Shown: piece after piece, positions 6,138 to 33,464 of the stretch
Numbering within the stretch: the stretch's first letter is position 1
Layout: every line of letters begins with the position of its first letter
From: Peptococcaceae bacterium
Lineage (GTDB): Bacteria; Bacillota; DSM-12270; Thermacetogeniales; Thermacetogeniaceae
Assembly (NCBI GenBank): GCA_003132605.1
Contig: PKYJ01000028.1
Location: 1 to 33,464, forward strand
Length of the DNA stretch: 33,464 nucleotides
Direction: 5' to 3'
The notes under the pieces: generated by a model
What the model was told of the DNA's origin: nothing
The model's input: the letters and a program-made list of their open reading frames with translations, nothing else
The model's database searches: none
Translations under genes and position numbers: made by a program

Positions 6138-6190
6138 CTATCGCTCTTATCCTGCCACTTCGAAGAAGCGGGTGATATTAGAGCAGGTAA
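6138..6190 (-). repeat. degenerate solo copy of repeat module A (see 29151-29273), reverse orientation
   Basis: CTATCGCTCTTATCCTGCCACTTCGAAGAAGCGGGTGATATTAGAGCAGGTAA aligns by eye to the reverse complement of 29161-29212 (GTAGCCGCTCTTATCCCACCGCTTCGAAGAAGCGGGGGTATTAGAGCGGGTA) with several substitutions. It is intergenic, between rnc and spoVS. Confidence 0.6.
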
Positions 6191-6286
6191 TCCTCGGGGA
6201 AATATATCAGCTCATTCAAGTATATTTCGACCGTTAGCTAAAAATTCCTGCTCAAGCTCAGGTCCAAGTGCTCAATATCTGCTTTA

Positions 6287-9424: not shown

Positions 9425-10396
9425 TTAAACAGTTCCCCCCGTTTGCGCAAGCACCTTTTCCAATGTTTTTTCGTCCTCGACATGGTCTACCCGGCACCCT
9501 GGCAGGATCCTCCTGATCAGTCCGGACAACACCTGGCCGGGGCCAACTTCCAAATAGTCTTTGAACCCCTCGCTTGCAAGTCTTTTTACCGACTCCTCCC
9601 AGAGCACCGGCGAGCTTACCTGGGCAGCCAGCAGGTCTTTGATGACGCCCGGACTGGATACCGCCTCCCCGGAGGCATTCATTACCAGAGTTACTTTGGG
9701 TGCGGAGAAGGTATACCCTTGCAGAAACAGCCTCAGGTCTTCGCTCACACCGGCCATCAAAGAGGTGTGAAAGGCGCCGCTGACCGCCAGCGTGGCAACT
9801 TTTCTGGCCCCCCTGCGGCGGGCCTCGGCGATGGCTTCATCCAGGGCCGCTCTCTCGCCGGAGATCACGATCTGGTTTGGGGCGTTGAAGTTTGCCAGTT
9901 GCACCACCCCCTTGGTTCCGGCCACCAGGCATATTTCCCGCACCGCCTCCTGCCCCAGACCGATCACGGCAGCCATGCCCCCCAGTCCGGAGGCAGCCGC
10001 CCGGTCCATCAACTCAGCCCGCTTGATCACGATCTCCAGGGCCGCAGCGAAGGATAGCACCCCAGCGGCGACCAGGGCCGTGTATTCTCCCAGGCTGTGG
10101 CCTGCGGCGGCCTGGCAGGTGACGCCGGACTCCTGCAGCACTTTCATGATGGCGATACTTGCCGTAAAAATTGCGGGCTGGGTGTACTTGGTCCGGCCTA
10201 ACACCTCTGCCGGCCCCTCGGCGCAAAGCTGCAACATCTGGTACCCGTCAACCTGCCCGGCCTGCTCGAAAACTTCGGCCGCCACCCGGCGCCGACGGAC
10301 GAGTTCGATACCCATGCCCACATACTGGGATCCCTGTCCCGGAAAGACGAAAGCCAGACTCAAATCACGACCGCCCTCCCATCCTCTCACTACCAT
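9425..10396 (-). CDS. fabD: ACP S-malonyltransferase
   Basis: Motifs AFVFPGQGSQYVGMG and the active-site GHSLGEYTALV. The start is uncertain. ATG at 10396 forms ATGGTAG with the stop of the fabH relic. TTG at 10363 (MSLAFVFPGQ) has GGGAGGG upstream. Confidence 0.9.
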   Translation of the reverse strand: MVVRGWEGGRDLSLAFVFPGQGSQYVGMGIELVRRRRVAAEVFEQAGQVDGYQMLQLCAEGPAEVLGRTKYTQPAIFTASIAIMKVLQESGVTCQAAAGHSLGEYTALVAAGVLSFAAALEIVIKRAELMDRAAASGLGGMAAVIGLGQEAVREICLVAGTKGVVQLANFNAPNQIVISGERAALDEAIAEARRRGARKVATLAVSGAFHTSLMAGVSEDLRLFLQGYTFSAPKVTLVMNASGEAVSSPGVIKDLLAAQVSSPVLWEESVKRLASEGFKDYLEVGPGQVLSGLIRRILPGCRVDHVEDEKTLEKVLAQTGGTV

Positions 10397-10643: not shown

Positions 10644-11637
10644 CATGGCCCTGTTTCCACTCCTTCTGCAAGGATTCGACAAGGTTCTCTTTTACTGCTT
10701 TCGCTGTATAGCGGACGGCATTTTTAATGGCGCGGGCGCGGGAGGAACCGTGGCAGATCACGCTCAACCCGTTTATACCGAGCAGCGGCGCCCCCCCGTA
10801 TTCTGTGTAGTCCATCCTGCGAAAAATGTCGCCGAAGGCTGGCTTCACCAGCATACCGCCAAGCATCCGCAGGGGGTTCCGCTTCAATTCATCCCTGATC
10901 ATTCCGGTAAGGGTGGAGACGATCCCCTCAGCCAACTTCAGGGCAATGTTGCCGACAAAACCGTCGCAGGCGATCACATCCACGTCGGCGGTCAAAAACT
11001 CCCGCCCCTCGACATTGCCGGCAAAGTGCAGATCCCCGGCCTCAGCCAGGGCTTGATGGGCCTCGATGACCGCTCCGGTTCCCTTGGTAGCCTCGCTGCC
11101 CACACTGAGCAGGGCAACCCTGGGGTTGCCGATGCCCAGCACCTGCCTGGCATAATGGCTGCCCAGGTAGGCGAACTGCACCAGGTGGCTCGCCTTAGCA
11201 TCGACATTCGCTCCAGAATCGATCAGCACCTTGGGCCCCTTGGGAGACGGAAAAACGGTGGCGATTCCCGGGCGTTCGACGCCGGGCAGCCTCCCAAATT
11301 CGAAAAGCGCTGCTGTCATCTGAGCTCCGGTATTGCCAGCCGAAATGACAGCGGTTGCCTCGCCCTCTTTAACCAGCCTGGTAGCCACGACCAATGATGA
11401 GTTCCTTTTCCTCCTGACTGCGGACGCCGGGTGCTCATCCATGCCGATGACTTCTTCAGCGTTTCTGACGGTGATTGCCTCGCTGGGATAGCGGTACTTT
11501 TTCAGTTCTGCCTCTATCAACTCCTGATGACCGACCAGGATCACCCGGGCAAAACCACTGTTGACCGCGTTGACAGCACCCTTTATGACCTCCACCGGGG
11601 CATGATCGCCCCCCATGGCATCAACGGCAATGCTCAC
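10636..11637 (-). CDS. plsX: phosphate acyltransferase PlsX
   Basis: 333-aa ORF MSIAVDAMGGDHAP...; the fapR-plsX-fab synteny supports the call. Confidence 0.95.
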   Translation of the reverse strand: MSIAVDAMGGDHAPVEVIKGAVNAVNSGFARVILVGHQELIEAELKKYRYPSEAITVRNAEEVIGMDEHPASAVRRKRNSSLVVATRLVKEGEATAVISAGNTGAQMTAALFEFGRLPGVERPGIATVFPSPKGPKVLIDSGANVDAKASHLVQFAYLGSHYARQVLGIGNPRVALLSVGSEATKGTGAVIEAHQALAEAGDLHFAGNVEGREFLTADVDVIACDGFVGNIALKLAEGIVSTLTGMIRDELKRNPLRMLGGMLVKPAFGDIFRRMDYTEYGGAPLLGINGLSVICHGSSRARAIKNAVRYTAKAVKENLVESLQKEWKQGHES

Positions 11638-12533: not shown

Positions 12534-12657
12534 TTCAACTGGGTCTTGGCTTCAGTGGCCCCCACTGAAGCTTAGAGCCAGTTAATACAGTGGCGTACCC
12601 GCTCTAATACCACCGCTTCGAAAGAAGCGGGGGTATTAGAGCGGGTAGTCATCTGTG
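12534..12657 (-). repeat. full composite repeat (module B + module A), reverse orientation relative to 29151-29273
   Basis: TTCAACTGGGTCTTGGCTTCAGTGGCCCCCACTGAAGCTTAGAGCCAGTTAA + TACAGTGGC + GTACCCGCTCTAATACCACCGCTTCGAAAGAAGCGGGGGTATTAGAGCGGGTAGTCATCTGTG. It fills the spacer from 1 nt after the ylbN stop (12659) to the rpmF SD. Confidence 0.85.
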
Positions 12658-20399: not shown

Positions 20400-20575
20400 T
20401 TCTACCTGGGAAGGTACAACACGCCGTGCTTCCGGGCAGGTCTCCTGGCTCATGGCTCATTGCCCCGGCGCTGCCTTCCCGGATCAACTCCAGTGGCACG
20501 TTAGCGCTGGCTACCATTTACAGTGGCCGGACCCGCTCAGGTTTTTCACCTGATTCCCTTTTCCCGAATGCGACT
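20400..20575 (-). promoter_or_regulatory. cobalamin (B12) riboswitch aptamer
   Basis: The minus strand carries the conserved blocks GGGAATCAGGTGAAAAACCTGAGCGGGTCCGGCCACTGT, GTGCCACTGG...CCGGGAAGGC and the B12 box GAGCCAGGAGACCTGCC (20432-20451). Order and spacing match the cobalamin riboswitch consensus. Confidence 0.85.
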
Positions 20576-20624
20576 ATTCAGTTCTACTTTAACTTATCAT
20601 AAGCTTTCCGGTAAATCCAGATCT

Positions 20625-21580: not shown

Positions 21581-21620
21581 ACCGATGGCGTAGCCGCTCT
21601 GAAGCCAAGACCCAGTTGAA
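21581..21620 (+). repeat. internally deleted copy of the composite repeat (both termini retained)
   Basis: ACCGATGGCGTAGCCGCTCT corresponds to CACAGATGGCTACCCGCTCT, the left end of 29151-29273. It is joined directly to GAAGCCAAGACCCAGTTGAA, the last 20 nt of module B. It lies between udg and gpr. Confidence 0.7.
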
Positions 21621-21745
21621 TATATTATACTTCTTCAGACTGCCGAAAAAAACCTTGAAAATCGTATAAAAAGTTTGGCCCCTGGTTAATATTAGAGATG
21701 ACAGGAAGCACGTACTATTTTATTTTTCGGGGAGCGCAAATAACC

Positions 21746-22707: not shown

Positions 22708-22737
22708 AATCGGCAATCACTAGACGAGACATGGTTG

Positions 22738-22935
22738 TTACTTCGCCGCAATGCTATTCTGGTATTGACTCCAGACTTTCCGAGTCATCTCCCCACCGAT
22801 AGAACCATTGTCACGGGATGAGATGTTGCCCTTGTACCCCTGGTTGTAATCAACTCCCACTTGACCGGCGATCTCGAACTTGAGCTGATCCATAGCCTTT
22901 CTTGCATTGGGGTTCAGAATGGTGTTACGAGCCAT
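22738..22935 (-). CDS. alpha/beta-type small acid-soluble spore protein
   Basis: 65 aa, MARNTILNPNARKAMDQLKFEIAGQVGVDYNQGYKGNISSRDNGSIGGEMTRKV... carries the SASP motifs (..A.DQ.K.E.A...GV.., ..SR.NGS.GGEMT). SD AAAGGAGGTG. Confidence 0.9.
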   Translation of the reverse strand: MARNTILNPNARKAMDQLKFEIAGQVGVDYNQGYKGNISSRDNGSIGGEMTRKVWSQYQNSIAAK

Positions 22936-23009
22936 TAGTATGCACCTCCTTTCATCCTTAATACTTGCGACAACTACCGAACCACCACCTGGTTTCGAAG
23001 AAGAAGGTG

Positions 23010-23207
23010 TTACCGTGCCGCAATGCTATTCTGGTACTGCTCCCAGACCTTACGGGTCATGTTCCCACCGACATAACCGTTGTCACGGGATGGAAGGTCA
23101 CCCTTGTAAGCCTGGTTGTAGTCGACCCCAACCGAGTTCGCAACTTCCATCTTGAACTGATCCATGGCCTTCCTTGCATTCGGGTTCAGGATAGTGTTTC
23201 GAGCCAC
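23010..23207 (-). CDS. alpha/beta-type small acid-soluble spore protein (tandem paralogue)
   Basis: 65 aa, (GTG)ARNTILNPNARKAMDQFKMEVANSVGVDYNQAYKGDLPSRDNGYVGGNMTRKV... SD AAAGGAGGTG 8 nt upstream of a GTG start. A forespore-type promoter-like GTATC-17 nt-CAAACTA lies near 23270-23300 (weak call). Confidence 0.9.
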   Translation of the reverse strand: MARNTILNPNARKAMDQFKMEVANSVGVDYNQAYKGDLPSRDNGYVGGNMTRKVWEQYQNSIAAR

Positions 23208-28324: not shown

Positions 28325-28460
28325 TGGTCGTTGATCGTTGGATGCAGGTTATTCTGCATGTAATTCATTAAATACCAACGCTATTGATCTTTTTTCCAAT
28401 AGCTGCCAACCACAAACCACCTAAATCAGGCTCGCCTCGGCCAGGACCTGTCTTGTTCGC

Positions 28461-28521
28461 CACGATGACTAGCCGCTCTAATGCCCCCGCTTCTTTGAAG
28501 CGGTGGGATAAGAGCGGCTAC
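28461..28521 (+). repeat. solo copy of repeat module A
   Basis: CACGATGACTAGCCGCTCTAATGCCCCCGCTTCTTTGAAGCGGTGGGATAAGAGCGGCTAC is colinear with 29151-29212. It abuts the truncation point of the phosphoesterase relic. Confidence 0.8.
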
Positions 28522-28623
28522 GTCCCCGGCGTGAACGATCAGTTCGACGCCCTCGAAGAGATCCAGCGCCTCGACCCAGTCGTTGACAGAACCGTGGGTA
28601 TCGCTGATAATCCCGATCCGCAT
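28519..28623 (-). pseudogene. metallophosphoesterase (YfcE/MJ0936-like) relic, first 35 codons only
   Basis: The ATG at 28623 lies 1 nt after the ribH stop. MRIGIISDTHGSVNDWVEALDLFEGVELIVHAGDV carries the D-x-H and GD motifs of the calcineurin-like phosphoesterase fold. The reading frame then runs straight into the repeat (..AALIPPLQRSGGIRAAS..). A possible C-terminal remnant follows the repeat at about 28368-28460 (IVANKTGPGRGEPDLGGLWLAAIGKKINSVGI*); that part is speculative. Confidence 0.6.
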
Positions 28624-28624
28624 G

Positions 28625-29128
28625 TCAATCTTCCCGTGGCTGCTTGTCCTGGGTCGCTCCGCCCGCCTGCAACTCCCGCAGCAGGTTGGCCATCTCCAGA
28701 GCGGACAAGGCGGCATCGGCGCCCTTGTTGCCTGCCTTGGTACCGGCGCGCTCGATCGCCTGCTCCAGAGTGTCGGCCGTGATCAGGCCGTAGATGATGG
28801 GCAGGCCCTTATCCAGACCGATCTGGGCGATCCCCTTGGTGACCTCGCTGGCAATAAACTCGAAGTGGGGCGTTGCCCCCCTGATGAGGGTGCCCAGGCA
28901 GATCACCGCGTCATAACTCCGTGCTGCCATTTTTTTGGCCGCCAGGGGGATTTCAAAGGCGCCGGGCACCCAGGCGATCTCAATGGCGCCCTCATCCACT
29001 CCGTGCCGCAGCAGGGCATCCATCGCACCGCTCAACAGGCGGCTGGTGATGAAGTCATTGAATCTTGCCACGACTATCCCGAACCGCATCCCCTGACCGA
29101 TCAACTTACCTTCATACGTCTTTGCCAT
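28625..29128 (-). CDS. ribH: 6,7-dimethyl-8-ribityllumazine synthase
   Basis: ..[21 protein letters not shown]...[16 protein letters not shown]...[20 protein letters not shown].. is the lumazine synthase signature. Confidence 0.95.
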
Positions 29129-29150
29129 AGCTCGCCTCTCCTTCTATTTT

Positions 29151-29273
29151 CACAGATGGCTACCCGCTCTAATACCCCCGCTTCTTCGAAGCGGTGGGAT
29201 AAGAGCGGCTACGCAACTGTATCAACTGGGTCTTGGCTTCAGTGGCCCCCACTGAAGCCAAGACCCAGTTGAA
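29151..29273 (+). repeat. full composite repeat: module A (29151-29214) + linker + module B (29222-29272)
   Basis: Module A is CACAGATGGCTACCCGCTCTAATACCCCCGCTTCTTCGAAGCGGTGGGATAAGAGCGGCTACGC, with imperfect 24-nt arms. Module B is TCAACTGGGTCTTGGCTTCAGTGG-CCC-CCACTGAAGCCAAGACCCAGTTGA, with perfect 24-nt arms. The element lies between the ribBA stop (29276) and the ribH SD. Confidence 0.9.
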
Positions 29274-29275
29274 TC

Positions 29276-30487
29276 CTATTTTCCCAGGGCCAGCAGGTGA
29301 CCCATCTTCTCCTTCTTGGTCTGCAAGTAACGCCTGTTCTCCTGCACCGGAGGGATCTCGATCGGCACCCGCTCTACAATCTCCAGTCCATATCCCTCCA
29401 GGCCGGCAATTTTCCGGGGGTTGTTGGTCAACAGCCGGATCTTGTGCAGTCCCAGATCGACGAGGATCTGTGCCCCAAAGCCGTAATCCCGCAGGTCCGG
29501 AGGAAAACCGAGCAACTCGTTGGCTTCAACGGTATCGCACCCCTGGTCCTGGAGGCCGTAGGCACGGATCTTATTGGGCAATCCGATTCCCCGGCCCTCC
29601 TGTCGCATGTAGAGGATGACGCCGGCACCCTCGTCGGCGATCATGCGCATCGCCTGGGCCAACTGCTGACCGCAGTCGCAGCGCAGTGAACCGAAGACAT
29701 CGCCGGTGAGGCACTCCGAATGCACCCTGGTCAAGGTCGGGCGCGCCGGGTCGAGGTCGCCCCTGATCAGAGCTAGGTGGCAGTTGTGGTCGAGGATGGT
29801 CTCGTAGGCCACTGCCTGAAAATCGCCGTACTTGGTGGGCAGATGTGTCGTTGCCACCCGGCAGATCAGTTTCTCGGTGCGGCGGCGGTATTCGATCAGG
29901 TCGGCGACGGTGATGATCTTCAGGTCGTACTTTTGGGAGAACTCCAGCAATTGTGGAACACGTGCCATGGTGCCGTCGTCGTTCATGATCTCGCAGCAAA
30001 CCCCGGCCGGATAGAGGCCGGCCAGCCGCGCCAGGTCAACCGTGGTCTCGGTGTGTCCGGCCCTCCTCAGCACGCAGCCTTTTTTGGCCCGCAGCGGAAA
30101 GATATGCCCCGGGCGACGCAAGTCTGCAGGCTTGGCGGCAGGGTCGATGATCGTCCTGACGGTCAGGGCGCGTTCGAAGGCGGAAATCCCTGTAGTCGCC
30201 GTGGCCGCGTCCACCGAAACGGTAAAGGCCGTCTCCAGGCTCTCGGTGTTCTGTTCGACCATCTGCTGGATCTTCAACTCATCCAGGCGCTCCCCGGTCA
30301 AGGGCATGCAGATCAGGCCTTTTGCATAGGTGGCCATGAAGTTGATGGCCTCGGGGGTGGCTTTCTCTGCGGCAATGATCAGGTCGCCCTCGTTCTCCCG
30401 GTCCTCATCATCCACCACGATGACCATCCGGCCTGCCCGGATCTCCTCGATCGCTTCCTCTACCGCATGAAACTCGCCGGTTCTCAT
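29276..30487 (-). CDS. ribBA: bifunctional 3,4-dihydroxy-2-butanone-4-phosphate synthase / GTP cyclohydrolase II
   Basis: ..[14 protein letters not shown].. marks the DHBP synthase half. ..[22 protein letters not shown].. marks the GCH II half. The ATG at 30487 lies 5 nt after GGAGGGGAAG. The track's GTG at 30529 lacks an SD. Confidence 0.95.
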
Positions 30488-32499: not shown

Positions 32500-32728
32500 A
32501 ACAAAAAACCCACCACCTGGGAGGCGAGGGTTGATCAAGACCAGCACAAAGCCAGCATGAACAAGAGCGCCACTCTCCCATCCAGACTCTACTGTCGGCT
32601 CCGGATTCCCACCGGATCAGCCCTGCGCCTGCATCGTTTCACCGATCGCCGGTCCCGGGTTCGCGGGCTCATCCTCCTGAAGAGGCATCACCGCCGGTGC
32701 GGGAATCTCACCCGCCCCCCGAGGAACT
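32500..32728 (-). promoter_or_regulatory. FMN riboswitch (RFN element) with intrinsic terminator
   Basis: Minus-strand aptamer at about 32568-32728: CTCGGGGGGCGGGTGAGATTCCCGCACCGGCGGT...AGCCCGCGAACC...GGTGGGAATCCGGAGCCGACAGTAGAGTCTGGATGGGAGAG. A terminator follows at 32500-32532: AACCCUCGCC-UCCCA-GGUGGUGGGUU plus UUUUGUUUU. It lies upstream of ribD. Confidence 0.9.
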
Positions 32729-32739
32729 TCACAAATTTC

Positions 32740-33450: not shown

Positions 33451-33464
33451 CACAGATGACTACC
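33451..33464 (+). repeat. start of another module A copy (cut by window end)
   Basis: CACAGATGACTACC equals the left terminus seen at 29151 (CACAGATGGCTACC) and at 12644-12657 (reverse complement). It begins 20 nt upstream of the rpe start, the same placement as upstream of ribH. Confidence 0.5.

Follow-up and report, generated by a model that had tools for sequence, protein, structure and literature searches.

A composite double-hairpin repeat of peat-bog Peptococcaceae with presence/absence alleles, probably a non-autonomous mobile element

What is known of REP- and REPIN-type repeats comes mostly from Proteobacteria and cyanobacteria. Correia and ERIC repeats are single long inverted repeats with TA target duplication, and among insertion sequences (ISs) the target is TTAC for IS608 and TTGAT for ISDra2, IS608-type elements showing strong strand bias. 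REPINs are described as hairpin doublets with compensatory changes, whose asymmetric excision leaves a few terminal bases behind (PMC3116915), while REPs have also been inserted inside other palindromes (PMC3733652). The enzyme of the IS200/IS605 group recognises folded ends of single-stranded DNA (ssDNA) (PMC6006769). For the BOX elements of Streptococcus, built as boxA-boxB(n)-boxC, there is no convincing partner IS and they are described as currently dormant; Correia hairpins are reported to be targets of RNase III, and ERIC hairpins to modulate RNase E decay (PMC3049150). Here, we addressed a repeat composed of two successive hairpins, A and B, which is represented by six copies in a 33,464-nt stretch of DNA (hereafter the window; contig PKYJ01000028.1, positions 1 to 33,464, of the Peptococcaceae bacterium assembly GCA_003132605.1), where it occupies, among other places, the spacer between ribBA and ribH. 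A sequence-only reading of the window had described it as an unrecognised composite family, and no match in Rfam, among plasmids and phages or in published sequences was found for it. The comparison of near-identical strains reported below demonstrates recent gain and loss of the element. The family probably consists of small non-coding, non-autonomous mobile elements, that is, selfish interspersed palindromic repeats, which by analogy appear most like REPIN/BIME, BOX or IS200/IS605-derived elements.

Presence and absence at orthologous sites

Contigs encoding identical RibH, Rpe, L32 and SpoVS were found in JGI, ENA and Logan metagenomes and in one NCBI metagenome-assembled genome (MAG); fetched contigs are numbered with the prefix L. 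At ribBA-ribH, the window, L002 and L004 contain the element and L001, L003, L005 and L006 lack it, all of these contigs encoding identical RibH within surrounding DNA that is 99.7-99.9% identical. Empty sites, for which a search among close relatives had been proposed, were thus found in strains, and also in the relatives L190 and L175 (93-95% identical), which read CTATTTT-T(C/G)-CTATTTT-CCC. The filled allele corresponds to that of L190 with 29151-29273 exactly added, at CTATTTT^TCCTATTTT and without duplication, so that the bounds proposed for the element from its letters (CACAG...AGTTGAA) are exact and the following TC belongs to the flank. A target-site duplication of 7-8 bp at this copy, considered at first, is ruled out because the CTATTTT pair already exists in the empty L190 and L175. 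Short empty alleles are devoid of one 9-nt unit, and either deletion of the element between the CTATTTT repeats or a separate 9-nt slippage would account for them; this direct repeat is the likely substrate of the deletion giving rise to them.

Between rsgA and rpe, the window, L118 and L123 are filled, and nine contigs (L001-L003, L119-L122, L124 and L125) are empty, rsgA and rpe overlapping by 4 nt in the latter. Insertion took place at CTTCAC^CAGCAC, within the last codons of rsgA. A duplicate of about 29 nt lying upstream (GTTAAGGAGAGGACATATTAA...) restores the end of RsgA, which reads ..VLVKERTY* versus ..VLVKERTYS* in the empty alleles. The expectation that no copy resides in an intact coding region is therefore justified for the inside of the window and fails for this copy, of which the window contains only the beginning. 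The duplication of about 20 nt seen at rsgA-rpe was also considered as a long target duplication and rejected, since the element lies inside the second duplicate rather than being flanked by it. As a separate observation, L118 (ENA ERZ28657535 scaffold_2047) is a snap-back palindrome in which rsgA-rpe-ribD' is followed by an inverted set of these genes; the contig is probably an artefact of assembly.

Other sites differ in their informativeness. The analogous search for an empty ylbN-rpmF spacer (yceD-rpmF) gave none, as all 10 strain contigs are filled, with the number of modules varying between A-B, A-B-B (L130) and A-A-B-B (L135). The fragment at 21581 is missing at the orthologous site of L190. 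Full A+B copies are lodged in the variable hairpin loop of the flavin mononucleotide (FMN) riboswitch in two relatives, both 93-95% identical (L250:1504-1633 and L175:5186-5313), the insertion reading GCCTC/TTCAACTGGG...CATCTGTGGACA/GGAGG against CCTC-TTCA-GGAGG in the species of the window, where this riboswitch (32566-32730, minus strand, upstream of ribD) is intact; the difference may have arisen either by gain in the relatives or by loss in the species of the window. The site filled in L209 and L220 reads AAAAGTTGAAC in L236, where 7 nt identical to the element's right end are retained, which fits deletion between two AGTT words. Loss by deletion between short direct repeats is accordingly represented by CTATTTT at rib and AGTT at L236. 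Beyond rib and rsgA, cross-species pairs of filled and empty alleles were revealed at eight sites, including two at which L036 and L086 are filled and empty reciprocally, with further pairs in L169/L245, L243/L096, L086/L222, L159/L221 and L057/L112.

Clean junctions were read as CAGACG^CCGGAGG in L086, TTGGGC^GAATAG in L245 and CTTTAC^CAGGG in L096, and no duplication accompanies the insertion at rib, rsgA, L036/L086, L169/L245 or L243/L096. The tabulation of possible target-site duplications likewise yielded none: for 65 copies, the longest words common to both flanks are distributed as in shuffled pairs. Thus, the element has recently been gained and lost between near-identical strains, and the suggestion that it is, or was, mobile is borne out by its presence/absence alleles.

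Anatomy, abundance and target sites of the family

The element extends over about 123-135 bp and comprises hairpin A of about 70 nt and hairpin B of about 55-65 nt, A always preceding B in one relative orientation (268 sites). Mean column identity in the alignment of 66 canonical copies is 84%. The right terminus is sharp (...AGTTGAA) and the left one, N-A-C-(A/C)-G-A-(T/G)-G, is well conserved. Some details of the sequence-only reading have to be corrected at this point: the imperfect arms of the A helix are about 33 nt long instead of 24 nt; the CACAGATGR motif supposed to flank A does so on the left side, the right side carrying its imperfect complement (..CACTGTA); and the perfect 24-bp B stem with a 3-nt loop is true of the copy at 29222-29272 and a few relatives but not of the family consensus. 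In the latter, B has two conserved internal mismatches (for example, CTAAGC facing GCCAAG) and a loop of about 8-10 nt within a GGGGG/CCCCC stem, the perfect stem being a minority variant. The termini are not mutual inverted repeats, as the left NAC(A/C)GATG stands against TTCAACT(A/G)G for the reverse complement of the right end, and palindromy is confined to the interior of each module.

Outer stems fall into subfamilies whose arms change in step, namely ACAGATGAC..GTCACTGT, CCAGATGAC..GTCACTGG and ACCGAGGGC..GCCTCTAG for A and CTATTTCT..AGAACTAG, CTGGCTCT..AGACCCAG and CGATTTCT..AGAACTCG for B. RNAalifold predicts both hairpins with compensatory changes at 9 of 36 pairs; when the outer A helix is added, 95.1% of 2947 cells pair and double changes are found at 14 of 46 pairs. 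The covariation score amounts to 0.089 versus 0.045 in shuffled alignments (0 of 500 reach 0.089) and at most 0.041 in slid controls. Both stems are thus maintained through compensatory change. The B loop occurs both ways round (AAAGACAAT vs ATTGTCTTT) and is therefore able to flip. The bottom strand (5'-TTCAACT...CATCTGTG-3') is more stably folded than the top one, by about 4 kcal/mol, in 56 of 65 copies under RNA parameters and in 63 of 65 under DNA parameters, an asymmetry inherited from shared ancestry and hence no independent evidence, which hints at the active strand if a single strand is the active form. On this strand the inner stem of A has GTAG next to it at either side (GCGTAGCCGCTCT... 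and ...AGAGCGGGTAGCC), and B has no such tag.

The repeat coexists with other modules. A second hairpin family, CCTCCGCATCCGGGCTTACAGCCCGGCCTGAAGAATGCGGAG(T/C)ACA, is frequently found nested within A's apical loop (L094, L108, L032, L028, L030, L093) and also stands alone (L105, L076, L083, L061, L009), with a third layer made up of longer nested modules, ..GCCTGAACGCCGGCTCAAGGCTCCGCCTTGGCTGAAAGCCCGCCGGCACACCGGG.. among them. At certain sites, two to three tandem units of the right half of B (CCCACTGAAGCCAAGACCCAGTTGAAC) occur (L259:2966-3276 compared with L229; L010:4358-4520; L091). In L259 an entire element is nested in a B loop, and copy number differs among near-identical contigs.

Spread of the family was estimated by scanning with the 21-nt pattern CCGCTCTAATRCCCCCGCTTC of module A, one genome per species being considered. 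Genome contigs contain at least 111 matching stretches (6 assemblies among the 80 matches listed), and the identical pattern retrieved at least 120 stretches from JGI metagenome contigs. The source MAGs among the matches listed are Peptococcaceae bog_1190, MFD04492 and MFD03726, Thermacetogeniaceae SPRUCE 237 and Bacillota MAG053, so that the element is present in at least five Peptococcaceae/Thermacetogeniaceae MAGs plus many peat metagenome contigs. About 2.0 Mb of fetched DNA contained 460 element regions, which profile search and flank clustering reduced to 268 distinct sites; the search for further copies in other genomes, suggested beforehand, thus disclosed hundreds of dispersed sites. 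Canonical A-B copies account for 103 of the 268 and A-B copies in which one module is incomplete or interrupted by an insertion for about 45, while 66 are A-only (20 full and 46 partial), few are B-only and several are amplified forms; the fetched loci are biased toward module A, since A was the search pattern. According to record titles (Peptococcaceae or Thermacetogeniaceae), the hosts are uncultured peat and bog Bacillota, and they are regarded as spore-forming because genes for small acid-soluble spore proteins (SASPs) and germination protease lie nearby. One copy, with a module nested in the A loop, was encountered in L028 (JBEKCL010000123.1), a contig of a MAG titled Dehalococcoidia; mis-binning or horizontal transfer could explain its appearance in a bin of a different phylum. 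Many metagenome contigs (L147-L266) start or stop within a few dozen bases of the element, as expected because a repeat breaks assemblies, and short-read assemblies of the host organisms are indeed fragmented by it.

Insertion is not indifferent to the target. At 131 A-B sites, positions -5 to -1 are occupied by T (.62), T (.66), T (.65), W (.96) and Y (.94), giving TTTWY (W, A or T; Y, pyrimidine), while position -6 and the right flank are at background, except for a pyrimidine at +1 (75% of sites have a pyrimidine after TTGAA). TTTWY-like pentamers are already there in empty sites, as ATTTT at rib, TTCAC at rsgA, TTTAC in L096 and TTATC in L222. Insertions also recur in the loops of pre-existing hairpins, namely B of other copies (L259), the riboswitch and a terminator-like hairpin in L096 (AAGCCCTCAACTG / CAGTTGAGGGCTT).

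The absence of coding capacity and the location inside operons, both claimed from the letters of the window, were confirmed. Among copies between co-directional genes, 18 are on the same strand as the genes and 19 on the opposite one; divergent genes flank a further 21 copies and convergent genes 13, and 77 of 104 copies overlap crude open reading frame (ORF) calls by no more than 30 nt. Stop codons and ribosome-binding sites are intact around the surviving intra-operon copies. Terminator- or promoter-like sites were detected in neither full copy of the window on either strand, and the T-rich flank is on the 5' side of hairpin A rather than the 3' side. With no T-run behind a hairpin on either strand and no promoter-like site found, a role as terminator or promoter was rejected; the element can therefore sit between cistrons. 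Transcription of its hairpins within the rib, rpmF and rnc-spoVS units is certain, and they could affect the fate of mRNA.

Copies in the window

All six copies listed by the sequence-only reading were recovered at the same coordinates or within a few bases of them by a repeat finder, patterns and profiles (Table 1). Their existence is confirmed and chance is excluded: patterns for modules and ends (up to 3 mismatches) have 3-4 matches each in the window versus 0.00-0.14 expected from 100 shuffles. On the transcribed strand, the predicted RNA folding energy of the two full copies is -86.9 and -79.7 kcal/mol (z = -11.6 and -9.7), and each folds into two neighbouring long hairpins. Profiles built from 66 copies revealed no further convincing copy in the window (nhmmer, E<=1).

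Table 1. Copies of the composite repeat and associated features in the 33,464-nt window
Feature	Position	Strand	Sequence and parts	Setting
Full A+B copy (rib copy)	29151-29273	+	begins CACAGATGG, ends CCCAGTTGAA; hairpin A ~29152-29218, 8-nt A-B junction, hairpin B 29222-29272	between ribBA stop and ribH ribosome-binding site; both genes on - strand
CTATTTT, left flank of rib copy	29144-29150	+	T-rich insertion target	
CTATTTT, second occurrence	29276-29282	+		2 nt past right end of rib copy
Full A+B copy (rpmF copy)	12534-12657	-	A 12588-12656, B 12534-12586	between stop of yceD/ylbN (DUF177) and rpmF
A-only copy	28463-28526	+	truncated on the right at ..GGCTACGTCCC	found in every strain contig
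Degenerate A-only copy	6142-6197	-	A profile E 1.4e-11	rnc-spoVS spacer
Internally deleted copy	21581-21620	+	A left end ACCGATGGCGTAGCCGCTCT joined to B end GAAGCCAAGACCCAGTTGAA	
First 14 nt of full A+B copy	33451-33464	+		rsgA 3' end, just upstream of rpe

The two full copies are 89.5% identical. In the rib copy, the repeat finder outlined a perfect 24-bp inverted repeat (29222-29245 / 29249-29272), and the second CTATTTT, read on the minus strand, contains the stop codon of ribBA. The same program placed the A-only copy at 28464-28522 (identity 93%, 59 nt), the degenerate one at 6142-6200 and the internally deleted one at 21594-21621; the last consists of 20 nt of the left end of A and the last 20 nt of B. 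The spacer between rnc and spoVS has the same length across 10 strain contigs. Since the window ends inside the copy at 33451, its structure was traced in contig L123, which matches 763 of 764 overlapping bases and continues through a full A+B. Genes of the window are mostly located on the minus strand.

Several further observations concern the neighbourhood of the copies. The A-only copy at 28463-28526 is fused to a 5' relic of a Metallophos_2 gene (ORF 28426-28716, minus strand), whose reading frame enters the truncated copy, an arrangement resembling a deletion, one end of which fell within the element; in L003, L004 and L006, a product of 63-65 aa spanning the relic and the copy is annotated by gene callers. 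A cobalamin riboswitch unrelated to the repeat is situated at 20418-20606 on the minus strand (Rfam, 89.9 bits), and a tandem pair of diverged repeats (79-85% identical, spaced by 272 bp) at 22736-23206 appears to match two adjacent SASP genes called in related strain contigs.

Mode of spread and its alternatives

As had been proposed, the element was compared with Rfam, and no family was matched at gathering or permissive thresholds. Only the cobalamin and FMN riboswitches, both outside the element, pass the gathering threshold in the window, and permissive searches with the element and five loci returned only sub-threshold microRNA-type hairpins at chance level. Plasmid and phage collections contain no match to it, and its sequences are absent from the papers found in the literature search.

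The resemblance to REPINs and bacterial interspersed mosaic elements (BIMEs), which RAYTs (TnpA_REP) mobilise in, for example, Pseudomonas fluorescens SBW25 and E. coli, includes short non-coding extragenic repeats in hundreds of copies, hairpins with compensatory changes, lack of both IS-type terminal inverted repeats and target duplication, and the occurrence of singlets, clusters and mosaics, singlets being decayed remnants. The GTTGAAC left at the empty L236 site is comparable to a REPIN excision footprint (PMC3116915), and GTAG beside the inner stem of A recalls REPs, although this stem extends over 21-33 bp versus 5-13 bp in tagged REPs (PMC3733652). In contrast to REPINs, A is no doublet of REPs, its arms not being small palindromes themselves; the mobile unit includes a second, unrelated hairpin, B; no RAYT flanked by A/B was seen in the loci searched; and the host belongs to Bacillota. 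With IS200/IS605 and palindrome-associated transposable elements (PATEs) the repeat shares the lack of terminal inverted repeats and of target duplication, imperfect hairpins with conserved irregularities at both ends and insertion beside a short sequence flanking the left end only, here TTTWY. It departs from them in that its much longer hairpins reach the termini and leave outside the stem no tetranucleotide that could obviously act as guide, the target motif is no more than a preference, bias for a replication strand is at most weak, and no parental tnpA/tnpB IS bounded by A and B was seen in the loci. Like BOX, it is a modular composite of a Gram-positive host with variable module number (here A-B, A-B-B and A-A-B-B), folds strongly when transcribed and resides inside operons and next to riboswitches without abolishing them; unlike BOX, described as dormant, it is gained and lost at strain level, and each of its modules forms its own hairpin, whereas the A and C ends of BOX pair mutually. 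There is no apparent sequence relationship to BOX, whose hosts belong to a different class, the likeness resting on modular behaviour while the sequences were not compared directly. Correia (NEMIS) and ERIC are likewise palindromic repeats of about 100-150 bp co-transcribed with neighbouring genes, the differences being two independent hairpins and no duplication in the element. The label MITE (a miniature transposable element with inverted repeats) does not fit, as there are neither terminal inverted repeats nor target-site duplications. Since at least one defining feature of each named family fails, the repeat cannot be assigned to any of them; it is an undescribed example of a familiar kind of selfish repeat, and nothing yet indicates a new principle.

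The composite A+B unit moves as one, by simple insertion without target-site duplication, and we suppose that movement may be catalysed in trans by an enzyme recognising folded ssDNA. An HUH/Y1 transposase of the RAYT or IS200/IS605 kind can be put forward tentatively as its likeliest type, because the set of traits (no terminal inverted repeats or target duplications, irregular hairpin ends, a one-sided motif and asymmetric excision footprints) is that of the REPIN/RAYT and IS200/IS605 systems; the proposal stays tentative because no enzyme, strict target or strong strand bias goes with it. An excised circle would join the right end ..AGTTGAA to the left end CACAGATG... Established copies amplify modules in tandem, nest and decay owing to local errors of replication and repair, and their B loop can flip. 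There is also a minor chance that the family belongs to an undescribed system of ssDNA transposition in Bacillota, with an enzyme that is neither canonical RAYT nor IS200/IS605 TnpA, or is of an unrecognised class. Such a system would select TTTWY sites and loops of hairpins already present, invade riboswitch loops and cistron junctions with local duplications restoring neighbouring genes, and coexist with at least two further nested hairpin families.

A number of results weigh against enzyme-driven mobility. No cognate transposase emerged from the loci around the elements, about 2 Mb in all: when ORFs neighbouring the copies were clustered all against all, no transposase-like family recurred, and ORFs between inverted copies are housekeeping-like as judged by sequence, Pfam not having been run on them. 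Direction of change, gain or loss, is uncertain at the FMN riboswitch, L159/L221 and L057/L112. Verified targets such as TGGGC (L245), AGACG (L086) and GGGTG (L112) do not conform to TTTWY, which is a statistical preference and not a rule. The top strand coincides with the G-rich strand at 52 of 132 sites (39%; p 0.018, the sites not being independent), a weak GC-skew bias whose significance disappears at absolute skew >0.04. All genomes are MAGs or metagenome contigs, and copy numbers are lower bounds. Finally, phmmer with E. coli RayT together with jackhmmer, applied to ORFs of at least 70 aa from the same loci, returned one Y1_Tnp gene only (L247:10379-11177, Pfam E 1.8e-14), and this gene is bordered by a different repeat, of TIRYT type. 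Its flanks (10330-10360 and 11190-11230) contain inverted GGCAGACA(T/A)GGGGACGGTTCT(T/C)CTGTC repeats, which as sequences fit the TIRYT consensus GGGG[AT][CG]A[CG] (PMC6006769) better than they fit A or B. The gene was therefore rejected as the transposase of the element. Hairpins resembling the L247 repeats are dispersed in L100, L202, L225 and L260.

The main rival to enzyme-driven movement is spread without any dedicated transposase, by template switching at quasi-palindromes, microhomology-driven copying from another copy, gene conversion and slipped-strand duplication or deletion. Tandem amplification (A-B-B, A-A-B-B, repeated right halves of B), flip-flop of the loop, conversion of imperfect B into a perfect palindrome and deletions between direct repeats of 2-7 nt are readily understood in these terms, as are junctions at L250/window and L209/L236 that look rotated by 2-4 nt or microhomologous to the element ends and the failure to find a transposase in the loci examined. 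It is nevertheless unlikely that repair would suffice by itself: independent insertions have identical bounds (CACAG/CCAG...AGTTGAA) in unrelated targets without homology, the right end is sharp and the left end well conserved in 131 sites, a 5-nt flank motif is present, A and B travel together in a single order, and hundreds of dispersed copies are hard to reach through ectopic repair alone. More improbable still is that the element persists as a host-selected cis-acting RNA, its helices serving as RNase III or exonuclease-blocking determinants that tune operon expression. Hairpins very stable in either orientation, copies in spacers transcribed as part of the rib, rpmF and rnc-spoVS operons, stems kept by compensatory change and the reported effects of REP, ERIC and Correia on mRNA decay or cleavage (PMC3049150) speak for such a role. 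However, the copies at ribBA-ribH and rsgA-rpe are dispensable, being missing in near-identical strains (the rib copy in four of seven strain contigs with identical RibH), the perfect 24-bp helix is an atypical B variant, orientation shows no preference (18 vs 19) and divergent or convergent genes are separated by copies as well, insertion sites differ among related species, copies decay into fragments, no Rfam family corresponds to them, and conservation of pairing is equally expected for a DNA hairpin recognised in transposition. An RNA role is thus disfavoured as the reason for the element, because copies are dispensable and their orientation is random.

A classical MITE, that is, an internally deleted IS moved by a DDE transposase via terminal inverted repeats, would agree with the size of about 125-135 bp, with the non-coding, highly structured, multi-copy and intergenic nature of the repeat and, at first sight, with the 7-bp duplication flanking the rib copy. 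This explanation is very improbable, since relatives have the apparent duplication already in their empty sites, 65 copies and five clean empty sites give no general target-site duplication, the ends (N)ACAGATG.. and TTCAACT.. are not inverted repeats while the modules are individually palindromic, and neither an IS with matching ends nor a recurrent transposase ORF was found in the 2 Mb. Next to negligible is the probability that hairpin B is an attC-like folded site for an integron-type or other tyrosine recombinase. The right end AGTTGAAY does fit the core GTTRRRY, with the pyrimidine prevailing after TTGAA, B has the layout stem, internal mismatch, stem and variable loop with a loop that flips, and the empty L236 site reads G/TTGAAC; yet the empty rib, rsgA, L086 and L245 junctions have no GTT/TTGAA core and the G^TT crossover fails there, the left end of B does not fit RYYYAAC, no cassette array exists and a degenerate 7-nt match noticed post hoc is weak evidence. 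Partial ORF checks, none of them specific for integrases, gave no integrase-like ORF. SINE-like retroposition, suggested by the A-rich tail of the bottom strand, was discarded as well, there being no target duplications of variable length.

If the family indeed consists of non-autonomous mobile elements, as we consider probable, the strong RNA hairpins in operon transcripts would be a side-effect that may locally alter mRNA decay or processing, and any effect at the RNA level is most simply regarded as a by-product of a selfish DNA element; no evidence for a dedicated regulatory role, or for the 24-bp helix between ribBA and ribH as a determinant of processing or stability, was found in this analysis. 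In practical terms, the repeat breaks metagenome assemblies, is read through by gene callers and might be used as a marker of strains. Nearly identical strains with naturally filled or empty alleles, located at operon junctions and within a riboswitch loop, offer ready comparisons for studying effects on mRNA, tolerance of insertions and their removal. An abundant and apparently still active family of palindromic repeats is thereby added to the poorly known Peptococcaceae/Thermacetogeniaceae of peat bogs.

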